DNA from: an uncultured virus (IMG/VR IMGVR_UViG_3300037067_011710)
Taxonomy: Duplodnaviria > Heunggongvirae > Uroviricota > Caudoviricetes
Reading direction: 5' to 3' (one strand)
Virus record (IMG/VR): IMGVR_UViG_3300037067_011710
DNA: 64,000 nt
The first letter of the stretch is position 1. Each line of letters starts with the position of its first letter. A program made the translations under genes and the position numbers. Under the pieces are notes generated by a model. The model did not search any database. It saw only the letters and a program-made list of their open reading frames with translations, and had not been told where the DNA came from. Below, one piece after another: positions 15,182 to 35,523 of the stretch.

Positions 15182-15575
15182 AATACCTTCTTTGATATGA
15201 TTCCTCGAAAATTGTGTTCTGCAATCTCATTATTAACTTATGAATTTGATCGCGTTCGAACCATGCACCGTGAATCTTTGAAACCGAATCCCCCAATTCC
15301 CAGGTCAAAAGCTCAAGCGCCTCATGAAATGCTGACCGGCATAGCATCTTGTGTGATACTTCATCAAACCCCCAATGAGTAGAAAGTATCATCTGCGCCA
15401 TATGTTCTGACCGGTCATTGTTAACTTGGGTAGCGGCAAGCCCTTCCCTTTTTACGTGAAAAAAAGTAACGCAGTATTCATACATACCGAAATACTTTAT
15501 CCAATATTCACATTCTTTCTTGAATACTTGGAAGTCTTTTTCAGTTGTCTTGTTTGATTTTTTGATCACACGCAC
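15156..15575 (-). CDS. Hypothetical phage protein (AFHEALEL motif)
   Basis: 139-aa ORF in operon. Confidence 0.6.
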   Translation of the reverse strand: MRVIKKSNKTTEKDFQVFKKECEYWIKYFGMYEYCVTFFHVKREGLAATQVNNDRSEHMAQMILSTHWGFDEVSHKMLCRSAFHEALELLTWELGDSVSKIHGAWFERDQIHKLIMRLQNTIFEESYQRRYCATARKRY

Positions 15576-17841: not shown

Positions 17842-18545
17842 TTATGCAGAAACCTCTTGATCGTCTTCAGCTTGTTCATTCCATGCAGTTCTTCACTGAA
17901 TCTTGGTGGTCTCACTATTGTGGAGTGATTCATTTCGTGAACATTCACGACGAAATGTCCGTCTTCCAGCACAACAGCTCCGAAACTTTTGATATATGTG
18001 TGCTCAACCGGATCAAACCGATACATCCCTTTAACATATTTCTGCACGTAGAATGGTCCACTGCCACAGCAATCATACTTCCACATCTTGCCATTGTAAT
18101 AGCAATATCCATATCCGCGTTGAAAATATCCGTACTGTTCTGATACTGGAAACTCATTTAAAATGTATTCAAACGTATCCCGAGAATACATATCATCAGA
18201 ATCGATACGAACTGCATAGGTAGTATCGTAATTCTCCCTTAAAAGCTTCATAGTATCATTGTAATTTTTAGTCCCGAAATAAAGAAGTTTAACTCTGGAA
18301 TCTTCTTTCATTACTTGGCTAAAAATATTGTCGGTAATATGCTTAGTTTGAATGTTACACATCAAATAATAAACAAATTTTCCATTCTGTACTGCTATGC
18401 TTGGATACGTGAATTTTCTCCATATCATATATCGATCATTGATCCATCCTTCTTTCAGTACCGGATGAACTTCTTGAGTCTTCCAATCTTTGAATGGAAA
18501 TAAGAAAAAATTAAATGGGGTCCAGCACACCACCAGATCATTCAT
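17838..18545 (-). CDS. Putative rhamnosyltransferase-like glycosyltransferase
   Basis: WINDRYMIWRKFTYPSIAVQ...VRIDSDDMY...NVHEMNHST. Confidence 0.7.
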   Translation of the reverse strand: MNDLVVCWTPFNFFLFPFKDWKTQEVHPVLKEGWINDRYMIWRKFTYPSIAVQNGKFVYYLMCNIQTKHITDNIFSQVMKEDSRVKLLYFGTKNYNDTMKLLRENYDTTYAVRIDSDDMYSRDTFEYILNEFPVSEQYGYFQRGYGYCYYNGKMWKYDCCGSGPFYVQKYVKGMYRFDPVEHTYIKSFGAVVLEDGHFVVNVHEMNHSTIVRPPRFSEELHGMNKLKTIKRFLHK

Positions 18546-19255
18546 ACCTCAACAAACTCCATCTTGGCACCTTCCCAATAATACTTTTCATGCTCCTCAT
18601 GCAGCGTTTCTTGAAACAATTCCAGCCTGCCGTAATGTTCCGGTCGAAATATCAAATCTGTACACGGTTCCTGTCGAGCAATTTCACGGTATCCGTCAGC
18701 ATCCGATTTTACCCCATGCACCCTCGGTCGATACGAAAAATGCCTGCATCCCTTCGGGTAATACTCCGGCAGCTTCTTTTCGAAGTACCGATACCAATAC
18801 TTTTCATACTCTGTGTCGTGATACATCGTAATCCCGGCGTGTCGGGCCATAGCCATCAGTGAGTACACTCTTGTTCCGGCGAAAGAATCAACGAACAGCA
18901 AATCAATCTTCAGCTTCTTCGGCAGCAATAGATACCAGTAGTATATTTCCTTACGCTGCTTTAGTATCAGCTTTTCAGGGTATGTGCTGAATACCAGGTT
19001 TCCGAACTGCTTTGAAACGAATACCACGTTTTTTCCGCACTTATCAGCTATGGCATCAATCCATTCCTGGTTGTGCTCTATCCCTACAACCGACTTGCAT
19101 CCTGCCGACCATATCGGGGTGCTGTTCGGTCCACACCCACACTCTACAACAGCTTCAGGCTTGAATACCTTGATTACTGATCTAATCACCGGCTGGTGTG
19201 ACGGCCGCATTTTGATGACTTTCATTCCATGCCTCTTTAAATGTTTTATGAGCAC
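18542..19255 (-). CDS. SAM-dependent methyltransferase-like protein
   Basis: VVECGCGPNST, IEHNQEW, DLLFVDS, HDTE motifs. Confidence 0.7.
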   Translation of the reverse strand: MLIKHLKRHGMKVIKMRPSHQPVIRSVIKVFKPEAVVECGCGPNSTPIWSAGCKSVVGIEHNQEWIDAIADKCGKNVVFVSKQFGNLVFSTYPEKLILKQRKEIYYWYLLLPKKLKIDLLFVDSFAGTRVYSLMAMARHAGITMYHDTEYEKYWYRYFEKKLPEYYPKGCRHFSYRPRVHGVKSDADGYREIARQEPCTDLIFRPEHYGRLELFQETLHEEHEKYYWEGAKMEFVEV

Positions 19256-20069
19256 GCAATGGCGCTTCAGGATTACCGAATTGCTGTTTTGATAAAAACG
19301 TATTGAATTCTTTCAGGTGTCTGCACGTTGATTTATAGAGTTTAACATTTTTCAACCTGATCGGATTCTTCAAATTTCTACATTTGGGATGCCATAAATG
19401 ATACACAGTTTGGTTATGCATAATATAGGTTTTTGATGCAAACTGAGCACGTCTGGCGATTTCATTATCTGGGCCTCCCAGCTCTTCAAACCATTCATTG
19501 CATCCACCAATGGAAAAAAAGAATTTTTTGTTGAATAAAACCATCCCGCCTTCACTCGCTCCGATGGTAGGATGAACGAACATTGACCCTCTTCGTTCTG
19601 CGATATCATTACTAACTGCTATCCCGGATAGAATCATCTTTCGATGAACTTCCGACGTGTAGCAAAGGTTATCCCATGCAATAATCCAATCGCATTCAGT
19701 TATTTCGTTGAGATATGGTTTAGGTGCCCACATATCAGACTCGGCGATAGCGATGGTGTTAAACCGTGCGGCCTTAGCTCCGACATTACAGCACCACCCT
19801 TTGTTGAAGGTTTTATATTCTATTGGTATGATTTTTGCATATCGCTTACCGAGACACATAAATTTATTGATGACATCCACTACCTTTCCGGGCATCATAG
19901 TGTCCTGCAAAACAATCACCAGCTCCAAGGCCTTATGCTTGGCGTAGAATGTGCGAATAGAGAATGCCAGTGCTTCCCATCGATCGGGCATAGCCTTGCC
20001 ATTGTAGGCGTCTCCTATGGGGATTATGACAGAAACTTCATTCATACTTTGGTTCCGTTGGTAAAACAA
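19182..20069 (-). CDS. Glycosyltransferase (GT2 with GT7 C-terminal-like domain)
   Basis: VSVIIP, FNKGWCCNVGA, IGGCNEWFEELGGPDNE, YHLWHP. Confidence 0.8.
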   Translation of the reverse strand: MFYQRNQSMNEVSVIIPIGDAYNGKAMPDRWEALAFSIRTFYAKHKALELVIVLQDTMMPGKVVDVINKFMCLGKRYAKIIPIEYKTFNKGWCCNVGAKAARFNTIAIAESDMWAPKPYLNEITECDWIIAWDNLCYTSEVHRKMILSGIAVSNDIAERRGSMFVHPTIGASEGGMVLFNKKFFFSIGGCNEWFEELGGPDNEIARRAQFASKTYIMHNQTVYHLWHPKCRNLKNPIRLKNVKLYKSTCRHLKEFNTFLSKQQFGNPEAPLRAHKTFKEAWNESHQNAAVTPAGD

Positions 20070-22982: not shown

Positions 22983-23169
22983 ACTCGTATGCGAGATTTA
23001 CGGCGTGATTTATCACATCACAATTGTTGACCTGCAAGCAGTCATCAACATGAATTTCATGCATCAGTTTTCTCTCGAAATAGGCAAGCGCTTTTCGATT
23101 TTTTTCTATCACCGAATACACAATATGCTTTGTCTGAGAAATAGGTGTTTTTTTCTGTCCTCTGGGCAT
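22945..23169 (-). CDS. Hypothetical protein
   Basis: 74-aa ORF. Confidence 0.5.
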   Translation of the reverse strand: MPRGQKKTPISQTKHIVYSVIEKNRKALAYFERKLMHEIHVDDCLQVNNCDVINHAVNLAYEYDRPKTRRRDDV

Positions 23170-23199
23170 GCTATAAATATATATAAACCTATATTAAAT

Positions 23200-25239
23200 T
23201 CATAATAAATTTTCGTATTCTGATACCTTTTTTACGGTATCTTGCTGATTACCTATCAACTTCTCCCTAATCTGCATTTTTTTGCGAGAATACGGGACAA
23301 TAAACATCCCCTGATCCGACTTTCGCGTCTCCTCTTTTATATGAGCCTCGATCATCATCAGTGATCTTACCAGTGGATAACCTTGAGGTATCTTTTTATT
23401 CTCATAGCACATCCGGCGCAACTGCACATCAGTCTCAACACAGTCAGAGTGCAAGAGAAGTATGTTGTCGGCAAACATCTTGTTTACCCGAAACACTGAG
23501 GAATGCTCATCATACATAGCCCCCTCAAAAATTCGTATGCCGCATTTCTGCAATTCCTTCTTTATGTTCGACTTTCCCTTCTTTGCCATGGCTTCGTTGC
23601 AAAATATTTTCCTTACTGTGACAAAATGTTCCTGCGATTCCAGTTGAACAATTGCTTTCTCCCTGATTTCCTCTGCCAACAACCGCGGAATCGGATACGG
23701 CTGAAAAATTTCGTTATAGACCTTCAGCTTACGTTTGGCATGAGACCATAAATAGCATCCACCATACACGCCCCCGGTTTCTTCCAACCACAGAACGATG
23801 TATACGCTGACATTTTGAGGTTGAATCTTATCAAACTCGGTTTTCTCTTTATTAAAACTGGAAACATGAACCAGCGGATTGTAATATTCAATAATTGGTT
23901 TCGGGCCTACCAACTTTTTAAACAATCCTGATATAGCATCAGCCCTGTCTTTTTTCCCATATGGGAATCTGGCACATTGAGATAGTGTAGGTTTATTCCA
24001 CGACCCCCGCAAAAATTTAACCCGTCCAAATTCTGCCCATGCTGCCCATGGCCTAAACCTCTCTTCCTTCTGCTCTTTAACTGGATCAGCCTTTGCACTA
24101 AAGCCCTTGAATATCTGAAGAAGATATTCTGACCCCCATTTTCCTGTAGCCTTTGATTCTTCCCATTCTATTTCTACATCCCGTCCGTCTGTCTCTGCAG
24201 TCTGGCGCATTATGTTTTCAGCTTGCCCTGGGGTTTTCTGGAAAGCCTCTATGTCGGTTACATAGAATATCCCATCATATATCCCTCCTTTAGCTCCGGC
24301 CGTTTCACACGGATCATTTTTCTTTTCCTCATCCTTTTCAGTTTCTGCAAGATCCCAATATCGAGATTGTTTCAATTCTGGTGGAATACTATCGACAATC
24401 TCTATCCATGAAGGATCAAATAAATTTCCAGCTTCAGTAATAAGCCAGTTTCCTTTTCCTATTCGTTCCCTAGTTACCCGGTCAGTTCCCATTACCTTTG
24501 CTTTATATTCTTCCCGGTTGGGCATCAGTTCGTTGGTATCAAGAGGAGCATCGATATAGGTTACGCTTGTCGGTGGTCTTCTATCCTCATCTCTTGCATC
24601 AGGAGATACCCATTCTATTTCATCGGTATTCCTGTCCCTTAAAAAATATCGTAGTTTTCCGCTTCTTTCGGGTATAGCATATCCTGTTTCGGGGTCCCAC
24701 CACCATTGAAAAAACTCCGCACACCAGGTATCAGCATCAGCGTTTCCTGTACAAAATGTAAATGGTTTTATTCTACATTCACCATAATTTCTATTCCTGG
24801 TTTGTAAATAAAAAAACTGACTTTTAGTAAACTGTGGAAGTTCATCAAATACTTCACATGTCCAAGCCAATCCTTGGTGATGAAATTTATCCGATTCATT
24901 ATTTAAATGTCCTATTTTTATATAAGCATTTGAAGGAAACGTCCATTCGGTTTTTCCCCTTACACCGTACCCATTGATTGCGGGATAAATATCTTGAGTA
25001 ATATCCCACAACCCACCCCCACCAACAATATCGTTATATTGTCTCCTAAAAATTACTGCGGTATAATCTTTGATATGAGCGTATCGACAAGCTGCAAGAG
25101 TAGAAACAACACTTTTCCCTCCCCCTCCTGGTCCTCCCATAAATGTAATATCGGCAGATGAAAGCAGTGCTTGGGTCTGCGGTCCGGGTTGTGGTCCAAT
25201 TATAGGCCTTCCATCTCCGGAATATCCTACAGGTTTCAA
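23200..25239 (-). CDS. terL: Terminase large subunit
   Basis: PQPGPQT Q-motif, GGPGGGGKS Walker A, VFDELPQF Walker B, RYWDLAET nuclease motif. Confidence 0.92.
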   Translation of the reverse strand: MKPVGYSGDGRPIIGPQPGPQTQALLSSADITFMGGPGGGGKSVVSTLAACRYAHIKDYTAVIFRRQYNDIVGGGGLWDITQDIYPAINGYGVRGKTEWTFPSNAYIKIGHLNNESDKFHHQGLAWTCEVFDELPQFTKSQFFYLQTRNRNYGECRIKPFTFCTGNADADTWCAEFFQWWWDPETGYAIPERSGKLRYFLRDRNTDEIEWVSPDARDEDRRPPTSVTYIDAPLDTNELMPNREEYKAKVMGTDRVTRERIGKGNWLITEAGNLFDPSWIEIVDSIPPELKQSRYWDLAETEKDEEKKNDPCETAGAKGGIYDGIFYVTDIEAFQKTPGQAENIMRQTAETDGRDVEIEWEESKATGKWGSEYLLQIFKGFSAKADPVKEQKEERFRPWAAWAEFGRVKFLRGSWNKPTLSQCARFPYGKKDRADAISGLFKKLVGPKPIIEYYNPLVHVSSFNKEKTEFDKIQPQNVSVYIVLWLEETGGVYGGCYLWSHAKRKLKVYNEIFQPYPIPRLLAEEIREKAIVQLESQEHFVTVRKIFCNEAMAKKGKSNIKKELQKCGIRIFEGAMYDEHSSVFRVNKMFADNILLLHSDCVETDVQLRRMCYENKKIPQGYPLVRSLMMIEAHIKEETRKSDQGMFIVPYSRKKMQIREKLIGNQQDTVKKVSEYENLL

Positions 25240-25838
25240 TCTTGATTCCTGCCATTATCAGGTATGCATAAAAGTGGAATAATAACAGTATTACCTCCTC
25301 CACTCCCACCCTCGGTAATCTTATGATGTTCTGCCAGCAATCGTATCATGGCTTCCTTTGACCACAACTCGTATTCGTACACGTTCTCTATCAGCTTATT
25401 GGTATTTCCATCCTCATCTTTTCCGCCAATGTCAGTAACCCGCTGAGTGTGCTTTATTTTTTTAATCGCCCGACGCCCTGGTCCCATTTCAAAAATATTC
25501 TTCAGAGCAATCCCGCCACCTTCATCTTTTACAAATAAATTGGCAGGATCAGAAAAGGCTATCAATGCTGCCTCTTCCAGAACATTATCAGCAGTTTTAT
25601 TATATCTTTTTAATGCAACATCGACTTTTAGCGCTAAAAAATCTTTTGCCTTTTGAGTTTTTAACAGGTTGTATCCACTACGTTGAGCATTGGATGGACG
25701 ATAACCAGCATCTATAAAAGCCTTTTTTATATCATTACCATTAGAAATATATAAACAAAGAGCTTTTTCTTCTTTAACAGAAAGATTATCTTTTTTTTCA
25801 AATCTATTTACTGCGATTTTTTTCATACCTGACCTCAT
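25236..25838 (-). CDS. terS: Terminase small subunit
   Basis: AFIDAGY, ADNVLEEAALIAFSD, KEAMIRLLAEH; directly upstream of terL. Likely start is 25826 (GAGG SD). Confidence 0.85.
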   Translation of the reverse strand: MRSGMKKIAVNRFEKKDNLSVKEEKALCLYISNGNDIKKAFIDAGYRPSNAQRSGYNLLKTQKAKDFLALKVDVALKRYNKTADNVLEEAALIAFSDPANLFVKDEGGGIALKNIFEMGPGRRAIKKIKHTQRVTDIGGKDEDGNTNKLIENVYEYELWSKEAMIRLLAEHHKITEGGSGGGNTVIIPLLCIPDNGRNQD

Positions 25839-25904
25839 AACGTACTATGCATGCTGACGTTTTGCTTCAAAATGTGCGGAGCGAACAGCATGCGACTGTT
25901 GTAC
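25835..25904 (-). repeat. attC-like site 1
   Basis: TCATAAC..GCATGCTG...CAGCATGC..GTTGTAC. Confidence 0.75.
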
Positions 25905-26050
25905 GAAGTTCGCCCCGCTTCCTTAGTGTTCCCGTGGCGGCATTCCGCGCACAGGACGTGCGCAATCTTAAAAGCAATGGCCTGCTCCGCAGTGCCCACC
26001 GCGAATAGTATTTGTGGTAGTTATGATCCATCTCACGATTTTAGTAAACA

Positions 26051-26908
26051 TTACACCCATCCTTTCGATAAGGTTCCGTTTGCATATACAACCCCGTACA
26101 TATTTCTTGCCGGAGCAAAAATTTTATATAACCCTTTTATCCCGTCCATAAACGATGCTGATAAAGTTTTTTCACACATAAAGCATGATCGCTTCAAAAG
26201 TAGTTTAGCTTTAACGCCGGGAATTATGTTTTTTAATTCAACAAAAGACTGGCACCCACCGTAAAATGGTGATGGCAATTTAATGTCAAATGTGTTTTCG
26301 AAAGAAACGAAGCAATCTTTGCCGTGTTGAATTTCGGATAATTTTATTTCATCAAAACCCATTCCGTCATAATGACGAATGCAGTCCGAAATATCGGAAC
26401 GAGTATACAAATATGGTTTTACTATGTTTAAATTTATCCGCACTTTTTCTTTGGGTAACGAAGCATAAAAAGACTGCCGATCATATTTAGATTTGGTTTT
26501 TCTTATTTCGTCTGCTATCTTTTCATCGTGAGACTGTACTGATAAATTTATTCCGTCGATCAAGGAAATCAATTCTAAAAACAACGCCCTGTTGTCAAAG
26601 CATTTTTTAGGCACCGCAGTTGTTACAAACAATTTCAACTTAGTTTTGTTTTTTAATTCCTTGATGCACGAAACAAGTTCTTCAAGAAATAGGCATGGCT
26701 CCCCTCCAAGAAAAAGAACATCGTCGTATCCGTTGCAATGTTCGACTATTGTTTTTACAATTTCCGGTACATTAGGAACTGCTGCACCAACCCCGTGGAA
26801 TCGAGTGTCAATACAGTGGGCACATTTATTATCACAAGAACTTGTAAAGTGTACATCGAATGAATTATACAGGCCATCACAACAGTTCTTTTTGAAAGGA
26901 TTTTGCAT
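26051..26908 (-). CDS. Radical SAM protein (cassette 1)
   Basis: CDNKCAHC, LGGEPCL. Start reassigned to MQNPFKK because the ORF-track N-terminus lies in the neighbouring att site. Confidence 0.85.
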   Translation of the reverse strand: MQNPFKKNCCDGLYNSFDVHFTSSCDNKCAHCIDTRFHGVGAAVPNVPEIVKTIVEHCNGYDDVLFLGGEPCLFLEELVSCIKELKNKTKLKLFVTTAVPKKCFDNRALFLELISLIDGINLSVQSHDEKIADEIRKTKSKYDRQSFYASLPKEKVRINLNIVKPYLYTRSDISDCIRHYDGMGFDEIKLSEIQHGKDCFVSFENTFDIKLPSPFYGGCQSFVELKNIIPGVKAKLLLKRSCFMCEKTLSASFMDGIKGLYKIFAPARNMYGVVYANGTLSKGWV

Positions 26909-26987
26909 TTTCTTTTCCTCTTCGGCGCACGACGCGCCGTCTTTTTTCTGCCGCCACCTACAATTCAGATTTTGCGGGGCGAATTTT

Positions 26988-27124
26988 GTACAACAGACTC
27001 GCAAATGTGTGCTGGCATCCGGGGGCGTAACCGTACAGCCGATCGGTTCTGTAAGCACCTTCATACAAGGTACACCCTATGCATAAAAGAGACCCCGGAT
27101 GCTTGAACACTTTGCGTGTTAGCG
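26988..27124 (-). repeat. attC-like site 2
   Basis: AAC-AGACT-CGCAAA-T-GTGT..GCATCCGGGG...CCCCGGATGC..ACAC-TTTGCG-T-GTT. Confidence 0.8.
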
Positions 27125-27425
27125 GCTGTTAACCGCGATTCCACAACTCACCTTTCCGGCGCGTGTTTCTGCAACGTACTTTCGAACGGCAGACCGGTAA
27201 CACTGAAAACAAAGCTCCCTGAACTTGGTAAACACAGGCTTCCACGATGGCCTCGGAACACCCTTTGAATCCTTATCGACACACGGTACGATATGGCTGA
27301 ACTCTGAAAAATCACGGATCTGTGTAGAATGGCTGCCGCAACAATCGCAAATTACCTGCTCCATTTTATCTCCTATGTAAGCGCCGGAACTTTAATGCTC
27401 CAGAGCGGTTTATTGACGCTAACGT
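26991..27425. repeat. 435-bp direct repeat, copy 1 (cassette 2)
   Basis: Identical by eye to 28524-28958 (offset 1533); the ORF translations are identical. Confidence 0.95.
27119..27364 (-). CDS. Small Cys-rich protein (cassette 2)
   Basis: CDCC...LCFQC; AGGAG SD. Confidence 0.7.
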   Translation of the reverse strand: MEQVICDCCGSHSTQIRDFSEFSHIVPCVDKDSKGVPRPSWKPVFTKFRELCFQCYRSAVRKYVAETRAGKVSCGIAVNSR

Positions 27426-27590
27426 GCTCAGGCACCAGCCCGAAGTTGACCGACAATCCAATCGTAACAAAACCTCACGATATCAAACTCCTCTTCCGTG
27501 GCACGATGGTTAGTATCTTTAATACTCTGCTGATCATATGCAAATTCCAAATTCTTAACGTCGGGCAATTTTGGGCTGCCTGTGTTATCG
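27417..27590 (-). repeat. attC-like site 3
   Basis: AAC-GTGCT-CAGGC..AGCCCGAAGTTG...CAATTTTGGGCT-GCCTG-T-GTT. Confidence 0.75.
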
Positions 27591-27751
27591 GTCTGTTGCT
27601 CGGCGCTACCCTTGCTCTGCCGGGCATGCTGCAAACCGGCAACAATGTCTGATAACGCAATAACGGCATTTTCAATATTATCGCCCGAACAGCACTCCAT
27701 TAACTAATCGCGAATACTGCCTGCATCTTGTTCAAATGTTGATATTGACAT
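27428..27751 (-). pseudogene. Cassette 3 ORF with in-frame TAG at codon 16
   Basis: AAGGAG SD then MSISTFEQDAGSIRD*LMECCSGD..., continuing in frame into the 90-aa ORF. Confidence 0.55.
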
Positions 27752-27803
27752 AAATGCTCCTTAAATCCACGCCCGGCCTTTAACATGGCCGCCGAGCAAT
27801 TGC

Positions 27804-27931
27804 CGATAACGGCTTGCGGTACGCATGAAGTAAAGTACGACCGCATACCGCTTACCTTTATTTTATGCTACCGCTGTTAGTTTCCGTTTTGCGGCTTTCC
27901 AATTCGGCATGTTGGCCTTGCGTTGTTGGGC
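27804..27931 (-). repeat. attC-like site 4 (composite)
   Basis: AAC-GGCTT-GCGGTA-C-GCATGAAGTAAAG...CTTTATTTTATGC-TACCGC-T-GTT (27876), plus a second core GTTGGGC at 27925. Confidence 0.75.
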
Positions 27932-28118
27932 GTATGTGCCCGTTTTGTACCATAATACCCTGCGGTGGCCTTCTTTGTTCGTAGCGAATAGCCGCCAGCA
28001 TAGCACACTCACGAATCTCTGAGGGTGTAAGCTGCAACGCGTGAATATGATGCTCCAAAGAATCCACCAAAGCCTTAATCAGGGGGTCGTGCATATAACG
28101 ATACTCGATTGACTGCAT
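27858..28118 (-). CDS. Hypothetical protein (cassette 4)
   Basis: RYMHDPLIKALVDSLE...LTPSEIRECAMLA; start set at MQSIEY inside the cassette. Confidence 0.65.
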   Translation of the reverse strand: MQSIEYRYMHDPLIKALVDSLEHHIHALQLTPSEIRECAMLAAIRYEQRRPPQGIMVQNGHIRPTTQGQHAELESRKTETNSGSIK

Positions 28119-28160
28119 TGGCCACCGCCTATAATAAATTGTTTTCAAAACGGGCATTTC

Positions 28161-28298
28161 GCCCAACCTTTACGCAATGGTAGCTGCTCCGCGCCACTTG
28201 CACGGAACTTTAGGCCACCAACAATTTACACCATTACAAAACGGGCTGTCGCTTGCTTTACAGTATCTGCGCGGAGTTGATACCTTGCGTTGTTGGAT
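28161..28298 (-). repeat. attC-like site 5
   Basis: AAC-CTTT-ACGCAA-T-GGTA..CTCCGCGC...GCGCGGAG..TACC-TTGCGT-T-GTT. Confidence 0.8.
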
Positions 28299-28493
28299 GC
28301 TCGTAACCTTTGCCACCTTAATATTGGCGCGGTTTATTCTACGCCAAATGGTACAAAAGCTTGCACAACAAGCGTATCCCGAATAAAATGAATTATCATC
28401 GCAAATAGGCAATAATTTTGCACTATGTGGAGACTTTTGAAATTTACAATGCTCCGAGAACTGTTTAAAACTTACTTGTCTATATCCGCGCAT
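28170..28493 (-). CDS. Cys-rich hypothetical protein (cassette 5)
   Basis: Start MRGYRQ inside the cassette; the ORF-track N-terminus derives from att site 6. Confidence 0.55.
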   Translation of the reverse strand: MRGYRQVSFKQFSEHCKFQKSPHSAKLLPICDDNSFYSGYACCASFCTIWRRINRANIKVAKVTSIQQRKVSTPRRYCKASDSPFCNGVNCWWPKVPCKWRGAATIA

Positions 28494-28523
28494 TATAACT
28501 CCAAAGCAAAGGTTATTGCATTC

Positions 28524-28958
28524 CAACAGACTCGCAAATGTGTGCTGGCATCCGGGGGCGTAACCGTACAGCCGATCGGTTCTGTAAGCACCTTCATACA
28601 AGGTACACCCTATGCATAAAAGAGACCCCGGATGCTTGAACACTTTGCGTGTTAGCGGCTGTTAACCGCGATTCCACAACTCACCTTTCCGGCGCGTGTT
28701 TCTGCAACGTACTTTCGAACGGCAGACCGGTAACACTGAAAACAAAGCTCCCTGAACTTGGTAAACACAGGCTTCCACGATGGCCTCGGAACACCCTTTG
28801 AATCCTTATCGACACACGGTACGATATGGCTGAACTCTGAAAAATCACGGATCTGTGTAGAATGGCTGCCGCAACAATCGCAAATTACCTGCTCCATTTT
28901 ATCTCCTATGTAAGCGCCGGAACTTTAATGCTCCAGAGCGGTTTATTGACGCTAACGT
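28524..28958. repeat. 435-bp direct repeat, copy 2 (cassette 6, includes attC-like site 6 at 28521-28657)
   Basis: Identical by eye to 26991-27425. Confidence 0.95.
28652..28897 (-). CDS. Small Cys-rich protein (cassette 6, identical to cassette 2)
   Basis: Same 81-aa translation as 27119-27364. Confidence 0.7.
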   Translation of the reverse strand: MEQVICDCCGSHSTQIRDFSEFSHIVPCVDKDSKGVPRPSWKPVFTKFRELCFQCYRSAVRKYVAETRAGKVSCGIAVNSR

Positions 28959-29082
28959 CAAGCGAATATGTGAAGTGGCGGCACAGCCCCTCCCGACCGC
29001 GTTAAGCTCTTGTCGGGGCCAACACCACATGTTAACAGCACATAAGTCTGCTTGCCGCCATTTTATATATTCGCTGTTGTGT
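28950..29082 (-). repeat. attC-like site 7
   Basis: AAC-GTCAA-GCGAATATGTGAAGTGGCGGCA...TGCCGCCATTTTATATATTCGC-T-GTT. Confidence 0.8.
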
Positions 29083-29221
29083 GAACGTAAAGAAGGCTTC
29101 CATAGTGTAAGCGCGTGCTCGGTCGTCTTGACTAACTACCATTACGAATACACACTGGACGGTAAGCCCCAGGAACCAAACTAATAACGCGCCTACAACC
29201 ATAAAAGCCTTCTTTATTTCC

Positions 29222-29300
29222 ACACAACGTTTACGCAGTGCGAAGTCGGCGCTTCGCCGATTTGTGCGGAGTCTTCGGAGCCACACTGCGTTTGTTAAGC
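29222..29300 (-). repeat. attC-like site 8
   Basis: AAC-GTTT-ACGCAGTG...CACTGCGT-TT-GTT. Confidence 0.7.
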
Positions 29301-29464
29301 GAAGTTTTGGCGGCTACCGCTGTCTTCAGAGGTTTGCAAACCTCTGAGCCACACCATACTGTTTCTTCGTTTTCAAGTTTAACCTTGTAGGGTAAATCAC
29401 AATCTTCATCGTCAACAGCAACAATGACGCCACTTAATACAACTTTTGTTCCTATCTCAAGCAT
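29231..29464 (-). CDS. Small SH3-like beta protein (cassette 8)
   Basis: GGAGG SD then MLEIGTKVVLSGVIVAVD...PYKVKL. Confidence 0.6.
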   Translation of the reverse strand: MLEIGTKVVLSGVIVAVDDEDCDLPYKVKLENEETVWCGSEVCKPLKTAVAAKTSLNKRSVAPKTPHKSAKRRLRTA

Positions 29465-29500
29465 GTAAACCTCCTCCAATTTAAGAGCCGACAAAATTTT

Positions 29501-29632
29501 GTTTAACGTGTGCCGTGTTATGCTCGTGCCGACCTATACGATGGGCACTCAACTCCATCATTCTCTAAGTCACAACCCTCTGCACGTAAAGCACATGATG
29601 GGCAAAGGCATGGCATAACGCGGCTGTTGTGC
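29501..29632 (-). repeat. attC-like site 9
   Basis: AAC-GTGT-GCCGTGTTATGC...GCATAACGCGGC-T-GTT. Confidence 0.8.
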
Positions 29633-29745
29633 GAAGGTTTTAACTCCTCCGCAGATTTAGCGCATTTGTGGTCAACTGCTAATTCACGAGTCGGAAACTT
29701 CGCCTCGCACTTATCGCACTGATAAAAAGTAAGTATTGTTCTCAA
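29518..29745 (-). CDS. Zn-finger-like small protein (cassette 9)
   Basis: AGGAGG SD, TTG start; YQCDKCEAKF...HKC. Confidence 0.6.
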   Translation of the reverse strand: MRTILTFYQCDKCEAKFPTRELAVDHKCAKSAEELKPSHNSRVMPCLCPSCALRAEGCDLENDGVECPSYRSARA

Positions 29746-29778
29746 ATGCGCCTCCTAAATAAAAGCGTTAAAACTTTT

Positions 29779-29918
29779 GTACAACGGGTTGCTAAACGGG
29801 TTTAGTTTGCCCGTTGGTTGACACAGGGTTTATCGAAACATTTAAGCGTCGTCATCTCGGAAAAGCACTTCTCTCCGTGTTTGAAAAAAGGGCAAATTGA
29901 ACCCTTTGGCTGTTGCAC
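29779..29918 (-). repeat. attC-like site 10
   Basis: AAC-GGGTT-GCTAAA-C-GGGTTTAGTTTGCCC...GGGCAAATTGAACCC-TTTGGC-T-GTT. Confidence 0.85.
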
Positions 29919-30098
29919 GTCTGTGGCCGGTGACTCCACCTGTTGCCGGGCGACAACCTCAGCCCCGATAATAGTATAGTGCGGATACTCAGCGATTAGG
30001 CGCTCCACCTCCGGAAGTTGTACGTCTACCGTTTTAAGCGAAAACTCACTTTGATCGAATCCGCACTGGTGGCACTCTCGTAAAATGATTCTTAACAT
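29802..30098 (-). CDS. Hypothetical protein (cassette 10)
   Basis: 98-aa ORF filling the cassette. Confidence 0.6.
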   Translation of the reverse strand: MLRIILRECHQCGFDQSEFSLKTVDVQLPEVERLIAEYPHYTIIGAEVVARQQVESPATDVQQPKGSICPFFKHGEKCFSEMTTLKCFDKPCVNQRAN

Positions 30099-30151
30099 AT
30101 AAGCTCTTTCGTTTTAGCCCGGCTTACAATCGTGATCTCACCGGGCATTGC

Positions 30152-30240
30152 GTGCAACGGTTTGCCGCACAGCCGAAGCTGGCGACTACAATTTATCTTC
30201 CACAGCCGACTTCGCCAGTTTTGGCTTGCGGCTGTTGGCT
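30152..30240 (-). repeat. attC-like site 11
   Basis: AAC-GGTTT-GCCGCA-C-AGCCGAAGCTGGCGA...TCGCCAGTTTTGGCT-TGCGGC-T-GTT. Confidence 0.85.
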
Positions 30241-30917
30241 GTTGTAAATCGCGCTTCCGAAGTGTTCTCCGGGGCGCTCCTCGCGCACACGATGTGCGCT
30301 CTTAATTGTTTTCCAATGTACTCGGTGTACGCAGGTGGGATTGCCTCAGAAAGCTCTTCCCGAGTAACCCACCAATCTACGCCCATTGCCAATGCTCCAT
30401 CAGCCCGCTTATAGTTATGCCCTGCGCATGTGATGAAATCGTAGTTCTCTAAAGTGTGATAGCACCCCTTCGATGGGGCCATACGACCCCAGTGGTTACA
30501 GGAGCCGGGAAGCATGATCAGGAAATTCGATTCGAATTTACGATGTCGAAGCACCCGCAAATTAAACATTGTTCCGCACAAAGTTATAGCGTTGATTAGT
30601 GGGGCATCGGGGACGTTTTCTATAACGAAAGGGACTCCGGATTGCTTTAGTCTTTCGCGAACAGGAGCCACCAAATCCGGGTAGTCAATTTCTGGATGCA
30701 GATACGCAAGTCTGGAATATTTTTGACATGGCGGGCTGGCGTGTATTGCATCAAAACCTGAAATAGGATACGTTGTTGCGTCTGCCTGGTGAAACTCGAA
30801 CGGGTAATGCGGCTGCGGGTTAATATCCACCCCGACCACGTCGAAGCCAGCGCGGCTATAGCCGACACTGCAACCGCCAGCCCCGCAGAACAAATCAAGT
30901 AATTTTGGTTTTCGCAT
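30186..30917 (-). CDS. DNA (cytosine-5)-methyltransferase, short phage type (cassette 11)
   Basis: LLDLFCGAGG, HASPPCQ, IENV, EAIPPAYTEYIG. Confidence 0.9.
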   Translation of the reverse strand: MRKPKLLDLFCGAGGCSVGYSRAGFDVVGVDINPQPHYPFEFHQADATTYPISGFDAIHASPPCQKYSRLAYLHPEIDYPDLVAPVRERLKQSGVPFVIENVPDAPLINAITLCGTMFNLRVLRHRKFESNFLIMLPGSCNHWGRMAPSKGCYHTLENYDFITCAGHNYKRADGALAMGVDWWVTREELSEAIPPAYTEYIGKQLRAHIVCARSAPENTSEARFTTANSRKPKLAKSAVEDKL

Positions 30918-30996
30918 TTTGTCTTTCGCGGCCCCGGACGGGCCGATTCTGTTTTGCGCCCCGGCTATAATAATTTGCCTTTGCGCGATTTATTGC

Positions 30997-31069
30997 AGCT
31001 AACGTGTTGCGGCATAGGTGACGTTCGGCTTTGCGAATGTGCGAAGCGAACACCTTGCCGCTGTTATAC
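30997..31069 (-). repeat. attC-like site 12
   Basis: AAC-GTGTT-GCGGCA-T-AGGT..GTTCG...CGAAC-ACCT-TGCCGC-T-GTT. Confidence 0.85.
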
Positions 31070-31093
31070 GGCGTTTGAAAAGTTTACCACCAG

Positions 31094-31675
31094 TCATAAT
31101 GCGCCCCACTGTTCCGCCATGGCACGCGCGATTCCGCTGTACGTGATGGAACGAATGAGATGCCGGTTGGGACTCGGCGGCAACTTGTGAATACGACCAA
31201 CTCTTCCGGAGACAATATCGGTTGCCCGGAGAGCCGGAAGCCCACTTAACCACAAACAAGTTGCTTTAGTTTCACCATGACCGAACTGCCACGGATGTAC
31301 TATTTGCGTATACCGTTTACCAATGATCTCAAGTGCCTTTCCGTGAGGAATGGGATTTTCGACGCAGATGCTTTTTGCGTTGGCATTAAGGCACTTCTCA
31401 AAAAAATGGCAAGCCTGCACCATTTTGCACCATCGACCCGGTTGAGTATAAAGCCAACGCACACCGCTGTTGCAGAGATAAGTACAATCCGGGTGTGCAA
31501 TAACTAAATCCCATTCCTCGCATAATAACTCGGAGACATCCCCATGGATATGCGAACCCCGCTCCGAACTGGATGGAAGTAAATCGCAAGATACGGCATG
31601 GTGACCGTACTCAAGAAAGGAATCGCGCACCGTTCCGCTGAACTCACACGCTACGAGAATTTTTTTAGGGCGCAT
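31094..31675 (-). CDS. DNA cytosine methyltransferase-like protein, minimal phage family (cassette 12)
   Basis: ILVACEFSGTVRD, WDLVIAHPDCTYL, ENP, PWQFGH..KATCLWL, RSITYSGIARAMAEQWG. Confidence 0.8.
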   Translation of the reverse strand: MRPKKILVACEFSGTVRDSFLEYGHHAVSCDLLPSSSERGSHIHGDVSELLCEEWDLVIAHPDCTYLCNSGVRWLYTQPGRWCKMVQACHFFEKCLNANAKSICVENPIPHGKALEIIGKRYTQIVHPWQFGHGETKATCLWLSGLPALRATDIVSGRVGRIHKLPPSPNRHLIRSITYSGIARAMAEQWGAL

Positions 31676-31707
31676 TTATAATCTCCAGAAACTTTTCAAA
31701 TGTTGTA

Positions 31708-32061
31708 TAACTACTTCAAAGCCGTAATGGCCCTGCGTATCTCGTTGATCCTGTTAATATCTCTTTCTTTAAGAAAATCCATTTTCTTTCCAATCTTTCT
31801 TAAAAACGAAGCTACTATCGCATGTACGTTATCCNNNNNNNNNNNNNNNNNNNNNNNNNNNNNNNNNNNNNNNNNNNNNNNNNNNNNNNNNNNNNNNNNN
31901 NNNNNNNNNNNNNNNNNNNNNNNNNNNNNNNNNNTAACTACTTCAAAGCCGTAATGGCCCTGCGTATCTCGTTGATCCTGTTAATATCTCTTTCTTTAAG
32001 AAAATCCATTTTCTTTCCAATCTTTCTTAAAAACGAAGCTACTATCGCATGTACGTTATCC
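31708..32061. other. Scaffold gap (100 N) flanked by a 127-bp duplicated overlap
   Basis: 31708-31834 equals 31935-32061. Confidence 0.9.
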
Positions 32062-32183
32062 GAAACAGTTCCTCCAGCAAACCCATAAAGAATATTTATC
32101 TCTGCCTCATATAAATAAACTTTGTGCTGTATTCGGACACGATTTCTAGCCATTTTAATGGCAGTGTGATCAGTTGCAATCAT
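31938..32183 (-). CDS. Hypothetical protein whose TAG stop overlaps the array entry GTT
   Basis: 81-aa ORF; TTGAAG-TAG-TTA. Confidence 0.65.
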   Translation of the reverse strand: MIATDHTAIKMARNRVRIQHKVYLYEAEINILYGFAGGTVSDNVHAIVASFLRKIGKKMDFLKERDINRINEIRRAITALK

Positions 32184-33010
32184 TTTAGAGGATCAGCCTG
32201 TCGTTGCGTTATCCGAAATGCTTCTATCATCGCCCGATATTTCGCCCGGTCTTTGTCACTAGACTTGGGAAGCGAAAAATATTTGTCCGCAATTTTTATT
32301 TGCGCTTCAACCTCTTTGGATGTCATTGGCGACTGCTTGCCATCGTTGAAATCAACGTCAGTGTTCTTCACACGCTCACCACGAGCAATCCGGTCGATAA
32401 CCTCAGTTTGTACACCCCTACGTGCTCTGGCCGTCTTAAGTGCAGCCGTTGGGCTTATAGCTCCTTCTTTTACGGCCTGCCTGATATCGGCAGGAGCTTC
32501 GAGCAGTTTGATAAGGTCCCTGATGTGCTGGTCACTACACCCGAGTCTCTTTGCAATATCTGATTTTTTCATTCCACCATCAACCAATTCTTTTATGGCT
32601 GATGCCTTATCGTCTGCACAAAGAGGCTCTGTGGTGGTACCATAGGAAAGCTGTTTCAGTATCAGATCAGCTCCAGAAAGCTTTTTTCCGCAAACTTTCT
32701 CTTCGAGTTCACAGTACAGCTCTGTTTTTTCCCATGATAAATTGGCAATTGCATAATTTGCAGCCCTGTGACGACGTTCTCCGTCAGTGTACTCGAACCA
32801 TTCCTCATCGTCCGACAGATATCCCCTTACAGGATCGCGCTGCCCCTCAAGGACTAGGCTATTCGCCAGTACCGCTATCGACTCTTGCGGGAATTGAGTC
32901 CGTATGTTCCGTTCCCCTCGGCGTATCTTGGATATCTGTATCCAATACCCGTTTCCGTCCCGGCGCACCCATGTCTTGTCCCTGATCCCCATCGTTTTTA
33001 TCCTTTCCAA
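32180..33010 (-). CDS. ParB-like nuclease/HTH protein
   Basis: GQRDPV...TDGERRHRA; HTH KKSDIAKRLGCSDQHI. Confidence 0.8.
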   Translation of the reverse strand: MERIKTMGIRDKTWVRRDGNGYWIQISKIRRGERNIRTQFPQESIAVLANSLVLEGQRDPVRGYLSDDEEWFEYTDGERRHRAANYAIANLSWEKTELYCELEEKVCGKKLSGADLILKQLSYGTTTEPLCADDKASAIKELVDGGMKKSDIAKRLGCSDQHIRDLIKLLEAPADIRQAVKEGAISPTAALKTARARRGVQTEVIDRIARGERVKNTDVDFNDGKQSPMTSKEVEAQIKIADKYFSLPKSSDKDRAKYRAMIEAFRITQRQADPLK

Positions 33011-33281
33011 AAAGATTCAACTGCTCAACCCCTCCGCGAACTATAACCATTGCCTCGGCAATCATGTTCGCCTTTCGATTGATTACAGCATCGAATTCCA
33101 TCTTTATCTCATTTCCCCACTCTTTCGACGGCACGGTGAGTAAGTCGAGTTTCTTTCCCCACTTCACTTTTATGGTGCCATCCTTCCGAGCAACAACAAG
33201 TATTCGTATACCTCGAAGAGTCTTTTCCAGCTTGTTGAGGTCACGTACTTGCTTATCAATACTATTCATTTGTTCCTCCAC
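32859..33281 (-). CDS. Hypothetical protein
   Basis: 140-aa ORF in operon. Confidence 0.55.
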   Translation of the reverse strand: MEEQMNSIDKQVRDLNKLEKTLRGIRILVVARKDGTIKVKWGKKLDLLTVPSKEWGNEIKMEFDAVINRKANMIAEAMVIVRGGVEQLNLFGKDKNDGDQGQDMGAPGRKRVLDTDIQDTPRGTEHTDSIPARVDSGTGE

Positions 33282-33471
33282 ACTTTATCCGATGCGCCAC
33301 CGTGATGGCATCGTTAATAATGTCGGCGTTCGGAATATCTTTAACTCCATCAACCCGACGTTCCCGAACCATTACTTGCTCAAGATCAGCAAGTTTACCA
33401 CTGTTTGCTCCAGTGATGGTAACCATAACACCAGAGCATTTACCTATTGACATTTCTTTTTTTGCTGGCAT
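33262..33471 (-). CDS. Small DNA-binding-like protein
   Basis: 69-aa ORF. Confidence 0.5.
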   Translation of the reverse strand: MPAKKEMSIGKCSGVMVTITGANSGKLADLEQVMVRERRVDGVKDIPNADIINDAITVAHRIKCGGTNE

Positions 33472-33498
33472 AATTTAAATATAATGAATAATTGTTAT

Positions 33499-35523
33499 CT
33501 ATGCAAATATTTTGTTGTAAATATTTTCAGGTATTTGCCGCTTGTACTTTTTCAAAATATGCTTAGCAAGTACCGCCTGTTTTGCGGTAATCGATTCGCG
33601 CTCCGATAGCTCATGCCCTATCTTGGTATCAATTTTATTATATCCAATGTCGTTCAATGACCGCGCGTAATCTCCGTCCATACCGCTCATATATTTCAAA
33701 GCGGCGTGAATCTCTTGAACTATTTCAGTGGTCAAACCATGCGCCTCTTCGATAATCCGTTCACGCTTCAGCCACCGTGTCGATTTCTCAACTTTTACTT
33801 CCCGATTCTGCACGGTATTCAGTGCCGATTCTACTACCTCCTGTTTTTCAATGAGCGTTTTTGCCATCAGAACATCAATTGAATCCTTGAGTACCAGGTG
33901 ATACACATTTACCGTGTCGGTCTGACCTATTCTATGAAGTCGGTCTTCGACCTGAGAAAGGTCGCCAGGGGTCCAAGGAAGCTCTACAACGTCGATCACC
34001 GATGCCGCGGTAAGGGTTATCCCTACTCCTGCAGCCTTGATCCCCAAAACGGCCACGCGACACTTTGGATCAGTTTGAAACCAGTCCACCAACTGCTGAC
34101 GCTGGTCTATTGGAGTATCACCGTAAATGGCAACTGATTCGTCTTTCCAATGGTTTGCAATCGCCTCGATCATTTCGTGGTGCCATGCCGCGATAACCAC
34201 TTTGTCAGAATTTTCAAGTTGATCTTCAACGAATTTTATCACATAGGGAATCTTTGCGATAGCCGTGGATTTTCGCATTGCAGCCATTTCGTCAAACCTA
34301 AATTTATTTTCAGACTCCAACCGTTCGATTGCCACTTTATAAGCATGTTCATCATCGTCGGCCTTGGCAATCTCAACAGCTACTTCAAGAGCTTCGGTGT
34401 TTGTTCGTTCGATATATTCCTTCTCCCGGTTGATCGCTGCCACTACCGTGCTGTCGGTTTCGTCGTATTCGAGTTCGATAACCTGCCTCACTTTTGGAGG
34501 AAGTTCGGTAAGCACATCTTTTTTCAGTCGGCGTATCATTATCGTCTCACGAAGTTTAACCTGAAGTTCCTCAAGCTTTTCATCTGAAGCGTGGCCTTTA
34601 AAATCCATGCCATACCCGTTACTATGTACGTCGCAGTACCGTTTATGAAAATACCAAAACGTCTTTTGATTCCAGTGCTCCGGATCGAGTAGGGAAATCA
34701 ACGGCCATAACTCTGCTGGTCGATTGCATACTGGCGTCCCGGTCAGCCCGATAATGTGCGCTGCATCCAATTTGTTGTACACCCGCTCGTCGTCTTTTTT
34801 ACTTCCCCCGGCTATCGACCTGAAGCCAAGTGTTCGAGTATTCCTGATAAAATGCATTTCATCCAGAATAACGAGATCCCACTTTATACTCGTTACCCGC
34901 TGGTTGTTTTCCAGCTTCCGCAGCACCTCATAATTGATCACCACAAAATCGTACCCGTCTTCAGGCATCGGAACCCTCTTTGAATCCCCTATAGCCATTT
35001 TAAATGACCTGGTGAGCCACCGTTCAGCTTCGTTGATCCAATTGGTTTTAATCGATGCTGGACACACTACAAGAACGGTTTTAACACTCGGATTGCAGTT
35101 GATAAACCCAAGCGCCTGAATCGTTTTCCCGACGCCCATTTCGTCACAATTGAGAGTATTCACACGCTGCAACGAATACTCGATTCCAGCTTTCTGAAAC
35201 GGATAGTAGTCATATCCTTCAGGATGCGGAAATTCCATTTTAGAACTCGCCGCTCTGCTTGCTGCGAGGCTTACCGTCTGGTGAACTTTTATCCCGGCAA
35301 GTTCTTCACGAAGTTCGGTGGATACTGCATACTCCGCCAGTTTCGCGGCCTTGTCCCGGTCAATGGTATACCACACTTTTTTCGTCGGGCACCATCCAAA
35401 CCCTGCAGTTTTTGGAATCATCCGCTCATCGTATGTGGATTGCAGATAATAAACAGTGTCGTCTTCATGAACCCACCGAGCCCAGTCACCATTTCCATTA
35501 TCGATAGTAGTAAGGAGTTTCAT
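33499..35523 (-). CDS. SNF2-family helicase (HARP/SMARCAL1-like)
   Basis: DEMGVGKT, ILDEMH, LTGTP, GVGITLT, QVEDRLHRIGQ. Confidence 0.92.
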   Translation of the reverse strand: MKLLTTIDNGNGDWARWVHEDDTVYYLQSTYDERMIPKTAGFGWCPTKKVWYTIDRDKAAKLAEYAVSTELREELAGIKVHQTVSLAASRAASSKMEFPHPEGYDYYPFQKAGIEYSLQRVNTLNCDEMGVGKTIQALGFINCNPSVKTVLVVCPASIKTNWINEAERWLTRSFKMAIGDSKRVPMPEDGYDFVVINYEVLRKLENNQRVTSIKWDLVILDEMHFIRNTRTLGFRSIAGGSKKDDERVYNKLDAAHIIGLTGTPVCNRPAELWPLISLLDPEHWNQKTFWYFHKRYCDVHSNGYGMDFKGHASDEKLEELQVKLRETIMIRRLKKDVLTELPPKVRQVIELEYDETDSTVVAAINREKEYIERTNTEALEVAVEIAKADDDEHAYKVAIERLESENKFRFDEMAAMRKSTAIAKIPYVIKFVEDQLENSDKVVIAAWHHEMIEAIANHWKDESVAIYGDTPIDQRQQLVDWFQTDPKCRVAVLGIKAAGVGITLTAASVIDVVELPWTPGDLSQVEDRLHRIGQTDTVNVYHLVLKDSIDVLMAKTLIEKQEVVESALNTVQNREVKVEKSTRWLKRERIIEEAHGLTTEIVQEIHAALKYMSGMDGDYARSLNDIGYNKIDTKIGHELSERESITAKQAVLAKHILKKYKRQIPENIYNKIFA

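Follow-up and report, generated by a model that had tools for sequence, protein, structure and literature searches.

The stretch of DNA analysed here comprises 64,000 nucleotides (nt) from an uncultured virus (IMG/VR record IMGVR_UViG_3300037067_011710) and is referred to in its full length as the window. It stems from a tailed phage with nearly all of its genes in the window on the minus strand. Between the 3' end of a conserved small gene and terS, the gene for the small terminase subunit (Terminase_2; 25236-25838, minus strand), it features an array of gene cassettes resembling those of integrons. On the minus strand, where all features of the array reside, the sequence from 31711 to 25835 splits at thirteen GTT junctions, with the G at positions 31711, 31003, 30158, 29785, 29507, 29228, 28956, 28527, 28167, 27810, 27423, 26994 and 25841, into 12 units of 272-1153 bp. 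Every unit starts with GTT and ends in an imperfect hairpin leading from ....AAC to GTT...., in one and the same orientation for 12/12 units, each of which contains one main co-oriented open reading frame (ORF). Junction mapping, together with the own-start test described below, thus confirmed the number and sizes of the units, their GTT starts, their single co-oriented ORFs and their AAC...GTT hairpins as laid out in an earlier reading of the locus (the original prediction).

The array begins at the 3' end of the small gene (31711..31834; 81-100 aa in relatives, not assigned to any family), the stop codon of which (TAG, 31713-31711) contributes the G of the first G|TT. This first junction, J0, is not preceded by a hairpin and resembles an attI-type entry point. 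Cassette 1 (31003..31710, 708 bp) encodes a DNA methyltransferase (ORF 31675-31094, 193 aa; phrog_757) and ends in site 1 (31069-30997, 73 nt), in which the inverse core R'' GTATAAC matches the cassette's own start GTTATAC. It is followed by cassette 2 (30158..31002, 845 bp) for a C5 cytosine methyltransferase (ORF 30917-30186, 243 aa; PF00145, phrog_363) with site 2 (30240-30152, 89 nt; AGCCAAC versus the start GTTAGCT, one mismatch). Cassette 3 (29785..30157, 373 bp) specifies a 98-aa protein without family (ORF 30098-29802; site 3 at 29918-29779, 140 nt, GTGCAAC/GTTGCAC), cassette 4 (29507..29784, 278 bp) a 75-aa protein with a TTG start (ORF 29745-29518; site 4 at 29632-29501, 132 nt, GCACAAC versus GTTGTAC, one mismatch) and cassette 5 (29228..29506, 279 bp) a 77-aa protein (ORF 29464-29231; site 5 at 29300-29222, 79 nt, GCTTAAC versus GTTAAAC, one mismatch). 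A hydrophobic protein of 56 aa is encoded in cassette 6 (28956..29227, 272 bp; ORF 29202-29032; site 6 at 29082-28950, 133 nt, ACACAAC/GTTGTGT) and Cys-rich proteins of 81 and 107 aa in cassette 7 (28527..28955, 429 bp; ORF 28897-28652; site 7 at 28657-28521, 137 nt, CGCTAAC/GTTAGCG) and cassette 8 (28167..28526, 360 bp; ORF 28493-28170; site 8 at 28298-28161, 138 nt, ATCCAAC versus GTTGGAA, one mismatch). Cassette 9 (27810..28166, 357 bp; 99-aa protein, ORF 28157-27858) ends in site 9 (27931-27804) with an outer R'' GCCCAAC that equals the complement of its own start GTTGGGC and an inner ACTAAC that closes a better hairpin. The outer GCCCAAC resembles the left arm of site 8, and the double inverse core could be the trace of a fused or rebuilt site. 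In cassette 10 (27423..27809, 387 bp; 90-aa protein, ORF 27700-27428), the site lies inside the ORF (27590-27417, 174 nt, CGATAAC/GTTATCG). Cassette 11 (26994..27422, 429 bp, 81 aa) is an exact duplicate of cassette 7, such that the array consists of 12 cassettes, 11 of them different. Cassette 12 (25841..26993, 1153 bp) combines a gene for a radical SAM enzyme (ORF 26908-26051, 285 aa; weak viperin-like and TatD-linked rSAM matches) with a conserved 67-nt piece (25970-25904) and site 12 (25904-25835, 70 nt, GTACAAC/GTTGTAC), which is homologous to site 1 with covarying stems. What follows is TTATGA, the distal half of the ancestral entry site, and at once terS (25236..25840 in all). The entry GTT overlaps the stop codon of the small gene 3-15 nt ahead of terS, and the ancestral empty site would read ...AAGTAG|TTATGA here and ...AAGTAG|TTATAG in a related phage (contig L004).

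The family matches bear out the two DNA methylases and the one radical SAM enzyme that had been named as cargo. The other nine cassettes encode small proteins, several of them Cys-rich, for which no match was found in PADLOC, NCBIfam, Pfam or PHROGs. The earlier description of small proteins as Zn-finger proteins goes back only to cysteine pairs in the translations. The cargo is probably accessory or anti-defence equipment that would be expressed with the late operon.

In all 12 units the reverse complement of the first 7 nt is present in the last 200 nt, exactly in eight and with one mismatch in four. The heptamers of other junctions gave an exact match in one of 140 comparisons, and none of 100,000 random re-assignments reached the observed own-start sum. 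When summed over the four variable core positions, mismatches amount to 4 for own starts versus 35 for the start of the next cassette; the inverse core therefore matches the start of its own cassette and not that of the neighbour, just as predicted. Beyond GTT, the pattern GTTRRRY is fitted by only two of the 11 different cores.

The correspondence between the two ends of a cassette extends well past the heptamer. The first ~28 nt of a cassette base-pair with a stretch of ~28 nt ending at its own inverse core, forming a terminal inverted repeat of ~25 nt, the sequence of which differs from cassette to cassette while complementarity is kept and a small mismatch beside the heptamer is conserved. 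Duplex energies average -18.7 kcal/mol for own ends versus -7.0 kcal/mol (sd 2.4) for non-own pairs, and across four arrays the own pair is the best pair for 19 of 22 cassettes. Such covarying cassette ends argue for a folded single-strand substrate, in which the long terminal stem would juxtapose the two crossover points of one cassette. As a separate observation, cassette 5' ends share the sequence GTT-N4-N-(C/A)AAT beyond the core heptamer (30960-31003 and 28120-28167 in the window, 5916-5960 in contig L014, 9626-9670 in L004), and in several cassettes a promoter-like TTATTATAG(G/C)CGG is found 30-40 nt further on, so that cassettes may bring their own expression signals.

The hairpins themselves follow a strict geometric rule that consists of AAC, 0-2 nt, a 6-mer, the exact complement of this 6-mer, 4-5 nt and GTT. 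On the coding strand of the array this rule gave nine matches, all at junctions, versus a mean of 0.31 in shuffles of the region; a comparison with shuffled sequence had been proposed along with the prediction, and the core and hairpin geometry came out better than shuffled. Elsewhere, four matches occur in the remaining 58 kb of the coding strand and one on the opposite strand within the array, and other viral loci (1.2 Mb) show a background of ~0.7 per 10 kb per strand. If one mismatch is tolerated, 11 of the 12 sites fit, at the price of a high background (22 matches versus a shuffle mean of 5.3); site 12 has different spacings. An exact 6-bp L''/L' pair is present in nine sites. Folding z-scores for the bottom strand are about -4 for 8/12 sites; weaker values of -1.4 to -2.7 were obtained for sites 3, 4, 8, 9 and 10. 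In ten of the 12 sites the bottom strand is more stable than the top strand. A looser cassette detector made 1387 calls across 7.6 Mb of strand but also 194 when 150 loci were shuffled; it was discarded as too noisy, and the strict chained-site test was used for other loci.

In the 12 window sites and three sites of L004 taken together, 14/15 have 0-2 nt as spacer on the R'' side and 4-5 unpaired nt on the R' side, and further single extra bases occur on the R'/L' arm, i.e. the arm that carries the bottom-strand AAC. In integron attC sites the bottom strand also folds better, and their extrahelical bases are found close to L'', across from the arm with the bottom-strand AAC (Nivina et al., 2016, PMC5027507). 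The window sites do not share the attC trait of an unpaired spacer on both arms with extrahelical bases near L'': the spacers of the aadA7 attC, taken from the supplement of PMC9892861, measure 5 and 6 nt. A search against Rfam at E <= 1 over positions 24000-34000 matched no family. By their predicted fold, the window sites are a distinct type and not classical attC. The original view that the array bears the signature of integron cassettes consequently stands with respect to the G|TT footprint and the mobility of the cassettes; it does not stand for the sites, which depart from classical attC in their spacers, their extra bases and the ~25-nt terminal repeats.

Five lines of evidence indicate that the cassettes move. 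Cassettes 7 and 11 are identical over 435 nt (26991-27425 and 28524-28958), from G|TT to G|TT, and outside this duplicate both flanks are unrelated beyond 2-4 common bases. In the sequencing run X2 the unit 26991-27425 forms a separate Logan contig at about twice the depth of its neighbours. Another contig from the same run joins 30999 to 31708 and thereby omits cassette 1 with its 708 nt precisely; the two sides of the joint share no more than GTTA. Depth is 40.6 for this joint contig, 36.6-40 for the contigs with cassette 1, 59 for cassettes 2-6 and 68 for the backbone. Run X2, possibly the source sample itself, contains 99% of the array's sampled words. The deletion joint fits the IMG/VR contig G001 (35,075 nt), which corresponds to the window from 31935 onward plus 3,009 nt past it and ends at the same junction, exactly at ...GAAGTAGTTA (GTAGTTA, J0). 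An IMG/VR query with the 32 nt left of J0 matched only this contig. A second IMG/VR contig, L003, starts inside the duplicated cassette site and continues through terS, such that contig breaks are found at J0 and within the duplicated site. Run X3, which belongs to another study, contributes a contig of 2973 nt in which the two ends of cassette 2 are matched up to 2-3 nt from junctions J1 and J2; 752 other letters lie between these ends, and the sequence outside is unrelated. A different hairpin precedes cassette 1 in X3, and in run X6 three contigs diverge exactly at J11. Alternative junctions, which the original prediction had asked to look for, are thus present in contigs. Backbone positions 23000-25650 are almost uncovered in X3, X6 and X8 (single low-depth bins in X3 and X6), which in runs that consist of contigs is no proof of absence.

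Comparison of the locus upstream of terS among related phages points in the same direction. The terS family is small (three clusters), and terS scans yielded only contigs L003-L005. L004 and L005, the only relatives found by terS (57% identity), carry three and two cassettes at the same locus, which comprises a homologous small gene ending ...AAGTAGTT, the cassettes, GTTATAG and then terS. The two differ by one 358-nt cassette, while their flanks show seven mismatches in about 20 kb; cassettes are accordingly gained or lost in related phages. A homologue of cassette 2 was moreover encountered as cassette c5 in the array of an unrelated phage (contigs L014/L126) with genes for a family A DNA polymerase, an Enc34-type SSB and a DUF2800 protein. 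Here, similarity reaches from the junction GTT to one base past the inverse core AGCCAAC, and the hairpins on either side are unrelated.

The own-start footprint alone cannot separate exchange at the 3' GTT from exchange at the 5' AAC. As the unpaired bases reside on the unusual arm, a reversed cassette, with crossover at the inverse core and the site ahead of the gene, was taken into consideration. It was rejected for the main events because the main point of crossover is placed at the 3' GTT by the duplicate, by the cassette-1 deletion, by the positions at which contigs end in X3 and X6 and by the two array ends, with no hairpin ahead of cassette 1 and a full hairpin after cassette 12.

Neither a PF00589 protein nor a relative of tyrosine recombinases was detected among window ORFs of at least 60 aa, by tblastn or in contigs G001-G004, a search that covered ~67 kb of this phage. 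The statement that the window lacks an integrase was therefore correct, and it extends to the sequence examined beyond the window. A candidate enzyme emerged elsewhere. In L014, an ORF of 268 aa exhibits the R...HxxR...Y signature (PF00589, E 1e-26) and ends 7 nt ahead of GTTGTGTGGAAATAAAG, the same 17-mer with which cassette 6 of the window begins. The recombinase gene is followed in L014/L126 by about eight cassettes of the same site type, and the own-start match was exact in all six that were checked. When the strict chained test was applied to 446 fetched loci, more than one chained pair occurred only in the L014 contig. The recombinase family consists of 33 clusters (43-100% identity, contigs up to 52 kb), with members on three IMG/VR contigs, L014, L127 and L128, that encode enzymes of 266-280 aa. 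All three have a cassette-type GTT start 3-9 nt past the stop codon of the recombinase gene, and sites of the same type follow in the two that are long enough to judge, with two complete cassettes in L128. Two further candidates, L201 and L188, turned out to be ordinary integrases, the latter with arm-type repeats.

Over its full length the recombinase can be aligned with the XerA-like structure 4a8e. Its alignment with VchIntIA (2a3v) falls into two pieces (51-171/54-175 and 209-253/263-307), in between which 37 residues face 87. The I2 helix marks the position of the additional domain specific to IntI between conserved patches, and it is at this place that the phage enzyme lacks ~50 residues. 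It scores 125.5 bits on TIGR02249 (integron integrase, cut-off 265), and the best NCBIfam match is XerA_Arch with 130 bits, below the cut-off of 220. The continuous alignment with 4a8e and the split one with 2a3v therefore point at an Xer-like recombinase without the integron-specific insertion. The IntI-like enzyme originally envisaged becomes the weaker option, because a short Xer-like enzyme without this insertion is the only recombinase found beside arrays with such sites. Most likely, judging from gene neighbourhood and alignment, a tyrosine recombinase of this type (266-280 aa) is the cognate enzyme.

On balance, we lean towards the explanation, held with slightly better than even confidence, that the locus is a real mobile integron-like array with a distinct site type that is served in trans by an Xer-like recombinase and carries accessory cargo. 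According to this explanation the array was inserted at one GTT overlapping the stop codon of the small gene ahead of terS. Single-stranded phage DNA would fold each site, and the Xer-like enzyme, provided in trans from a co-infecting phage or a prophage of the host, would exchange one strand at the G|TT located at the 3' end of the downstream folding site. With exchange at this position, new cassettes would enter at the first junction, J0, and whole cassettes would be lost, gained or copied.

A number of points weigh against this explanation. The runs all consist of contigs rather than reads, and the evidence for recombination is indirect. The shorter side of the X2 joint measures only 26 letters and X2 may be identical with the source sample, which makes this evidence good but not final. 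The indel that distinguishes L004 from L005 has a 25-nt ambiguity; as its two right arms are similar, homologous recombination between them could likewise account for it. Similarity between homologous cassettes breaks at the inverse core as well, such that a pure G|TT-only model is insufficient and the other strand may sometimes be used. The recombinase link rests on three contigs, one of which (L127) ends 121 nt after the first cassette start. Close relatives of the recombinase (at least 43% identity) were absent from 185,579 species genomes, where the best match reached 34%; in a metagenome scan none was among the matches listed (best 35%), which shows little either way. Neither search thus yielded a host or helper. 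The examined sequence covers all but about 340 bases of the 67,345-base scaffold. Finally, IntI1 recombined five of six tested phage sites (PMC9892861).

This last result makes the host integron integrase a serious rival, since it demonstrates that IntI1 recombines other phage-borne attC sites. The array would then be an ordinary cluster of attC sites lacking an integron-integrase (CALIN), the cassettes of which are swapped by host IntI with a chromosomal integron during infection. Phage CALINs, including methylase cassettes and virulent phages, are described by Qi et al. (2023, Front Microbiol, PMC9892861), who list seventeen, five of them with methylase cassettes. The AAC...GTT cores, the G|TT footprint, the single ORF per cassette, the methylase cargo and the bottom strand that, as in attC, folds better in 10/12 sites are all in agreement with such a cluster. 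Our whole-genome analysis of Tetrasphaera phage TJE1 (NC_019930, analysed as L447) revealed further parallels. Its CALIN is also situated upstream of terS and consists of co-oriented single-gene cassettes without an integrase, an AAC...GTT site follows each ORF, and the inverse core equals the cassette's own start in three of three cases; methylase cargo is likewise part of the published phage CALINs. It opens a 12.8-kb region upstream of terS in which accessory genes are loosely packed (L447 1-12800), and its first junction reads ...GTCCAACCA|TGTTGGAT across the record ends. For TJE1 only three attC sites have been published, compared with 12 sites in the window array.

The sites themselves set the two systems apart. 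Those of TJE1 have 3-nt spacers in both arms and an extra base on the L'' arm, whereas spacers of 0-2 and 4-5 nt and extra bases on the R'/L' arm, opposite to the published position of extrahelical bases (PMC5027507), characterize the window. In TJE1, pairing of the cassette ends is confined to ~8 nt (-8 to -12 kcal/mol), and the long cassette-specific repeats are lacking. Beside arrays of the window type an Xer-like enzyme was seen and IntI in none; population variants and a candidate non-IntI recombinase were found for this type. TJE1 sites have been recombined by IntI1 (PMC9892861). Taken together, an ordinary CALIN operated by host IntI appears unlikely, if by no means negligible.

It is far less probable that we are dealing with a fossil array that was inherited as a block and in which differences arose by homologous recombination or by replication slippage between hairpin arms. 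Two runs of different studies hold 99% of the array's sampled words, junction words included, a 25-nt direct repeat flanks the L004/L005 indel, and the phage encodes ERF, an exonuclease, NinB and SSB, all of which would be compatible with a fossil. On the other hand, the cassette-1 deletion joins sites that have nothing but GTTA in common, the duplicate cassette is embedded in unrelated sequence beyond a few bases, and the complementarity of covarying ends in 19/22 cassettes implies continuing selection for folding. That no recombination system exists at all and the hairpins are terminators between morons, products of chance or an assembly artefact is hardly tenable: although the scaffold gap adjoins the array and the 435-nt internal repeat could mislead an assembler, none of the 11 terminator-like matches (shuffles 7.5, sd 3.1) is positioned at a junction hairpin, the hairpins are followed by AAMC GTT.... 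and not by a T-run, permutation and shuffle controls rule out chance, independent IMG/VR and Logan contigs cover the array with the duplicated unit at twice the depth, and the same architecture recurs in L004, L005, L014 and L128.

The mobile array shares with classical integrons the cassette logic, the G|TT crossover, entry at the first position, imperfect hairpin sites (57-174 nt) and a bottom strand that folds better. In integrons, intI is divergent from the cassettes and attI lies between them. Where a phage array has a recombinase gene, in contrast, this gene points in the same direction as the cassettes, which begin at its stop codon. Further differences concern the phage enzyme, which lacks ~50 residues of the extra domain of IntI, the unpaired features on the other arm, the long cassette-specific terminal repeats and the window copy, which is without any recombinase. 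CTX-type phages integrate as folded single strands via XerCD. Both this substrate and the movement of small gene modules by an Xer-family enzyme are reminiscent of what we propose for the phage arrays. The pdif modules of Acinetobacter plasmids are Xer-dependent (PMC7399989), but they are flanked by double-stranded 28-bp XerC/D sites and, unlike the window cassettes, are not lined up in one direction as an array with a G|TT footprint. Phage cassette arrays run by an Xer-like enzyme were not found in the full-text literature searched, which lacks most subscription journals.

It is conceivable, and we put this forward tentatively as a proposition that falls somewhat short of an even chance, that a separate phage-borne cassette system exists, with opposite-arm hairpins and ~25-nt terminal repeats, a small Xer-like enzyme that is either encoded or borrowed and a pool of accessory and anti-defence cassettes common to unrelated phages. 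Phage CALINs as such are already known; novelty lies in the type of site, the candidate enzyme, the array's size and the evidence from populations that cassettes move. If the proposed system is real, phages use a plug-in locus ahead of their packaging genes, and methylases and small accessory genes would be exchanged across unrelated phage lineages by site-specific recombination instead of the usual mosaicism. Hairpin-type cassette recombination would moreover be tied to a recombinase without the integron-integrase insertion. In the abstract of PMC7790495 it is this insertion that is credited with the switch from double- to single-strand recombination, and an enzyme that lacks it would render the origin of integrons testable with natural enzymes and sites. 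The nine small cassettes of no family are candidates for anti-defence genes, and the pair of site and enzyme could become a compact tool for cassette exchange.

A further element was noticed in cassettes 2 and 12, which share a conserved piece of 65-105 nt immediately ahead of the inverse core (30233-30338 and 25904-25970, minus strand; 10796-10901 in L126). It contains GCGCAC-N5-GTGCGCG, then ...GAGAACACTTCGGAAGCG..., and is 92% identical between cassette 2 of the window and c5 of L126, the methylases of which are only ~55% identical as proteins. Runs X2, X3 and X8 moreover contain the 67-nt piece set in other, identical flanks, which end in a terminator-like hairpin, and in X2 the depth of this version exceeds that of the phage. 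The piece, for which Rfam gave no match, could represent a structured element at the RNA or DNA level.

A scaffold gap of 100 N (31835-31934) is present 124 nt upstream of the first cassette junction and coincides with this variable junction. About 115 identical bases on each side of it represent two contig ends left unmerged by the assembler, and with overlapping flanks the scaffold join is probably real. G001 has no overlap with the first 6 kb of the window. Genes of the window beyond the array include those for a P22-like portal (11656-13695, minus strand), the large terminase TerL (23200-25239, minus strand) and a ParB-like protein (32180-33010) as well as an SNF2 helicase and DnaB. TerL has 679 aa; both terminase domains end near residue 440 and are followed by ~240 C-terminal residues that have no Pfam match and are conserved in about 25 full-length relatives. 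A scan with a terL profile retrieved only distant terminases of at most 39% identity, and chained sites were present in none of these loci. The nearest cultured relatives of TerL in a tblastn search are Methanoculleus viruses, with 40% identity over 62% of the protein. Neither Pfam nor PHROGs gave a match for an ORF of 2,821 aa at 46271-54736 of the window or for the adjacent ORFs of 389-920 aa. Within the structural region, positions 14450-20069 encode a LicD-family protein, a radical SAM/SPASM enzyme, a second radical SAM protein and a family 2 glycosyltransferase and thus make up a modification cluster that is unusual for a phage.

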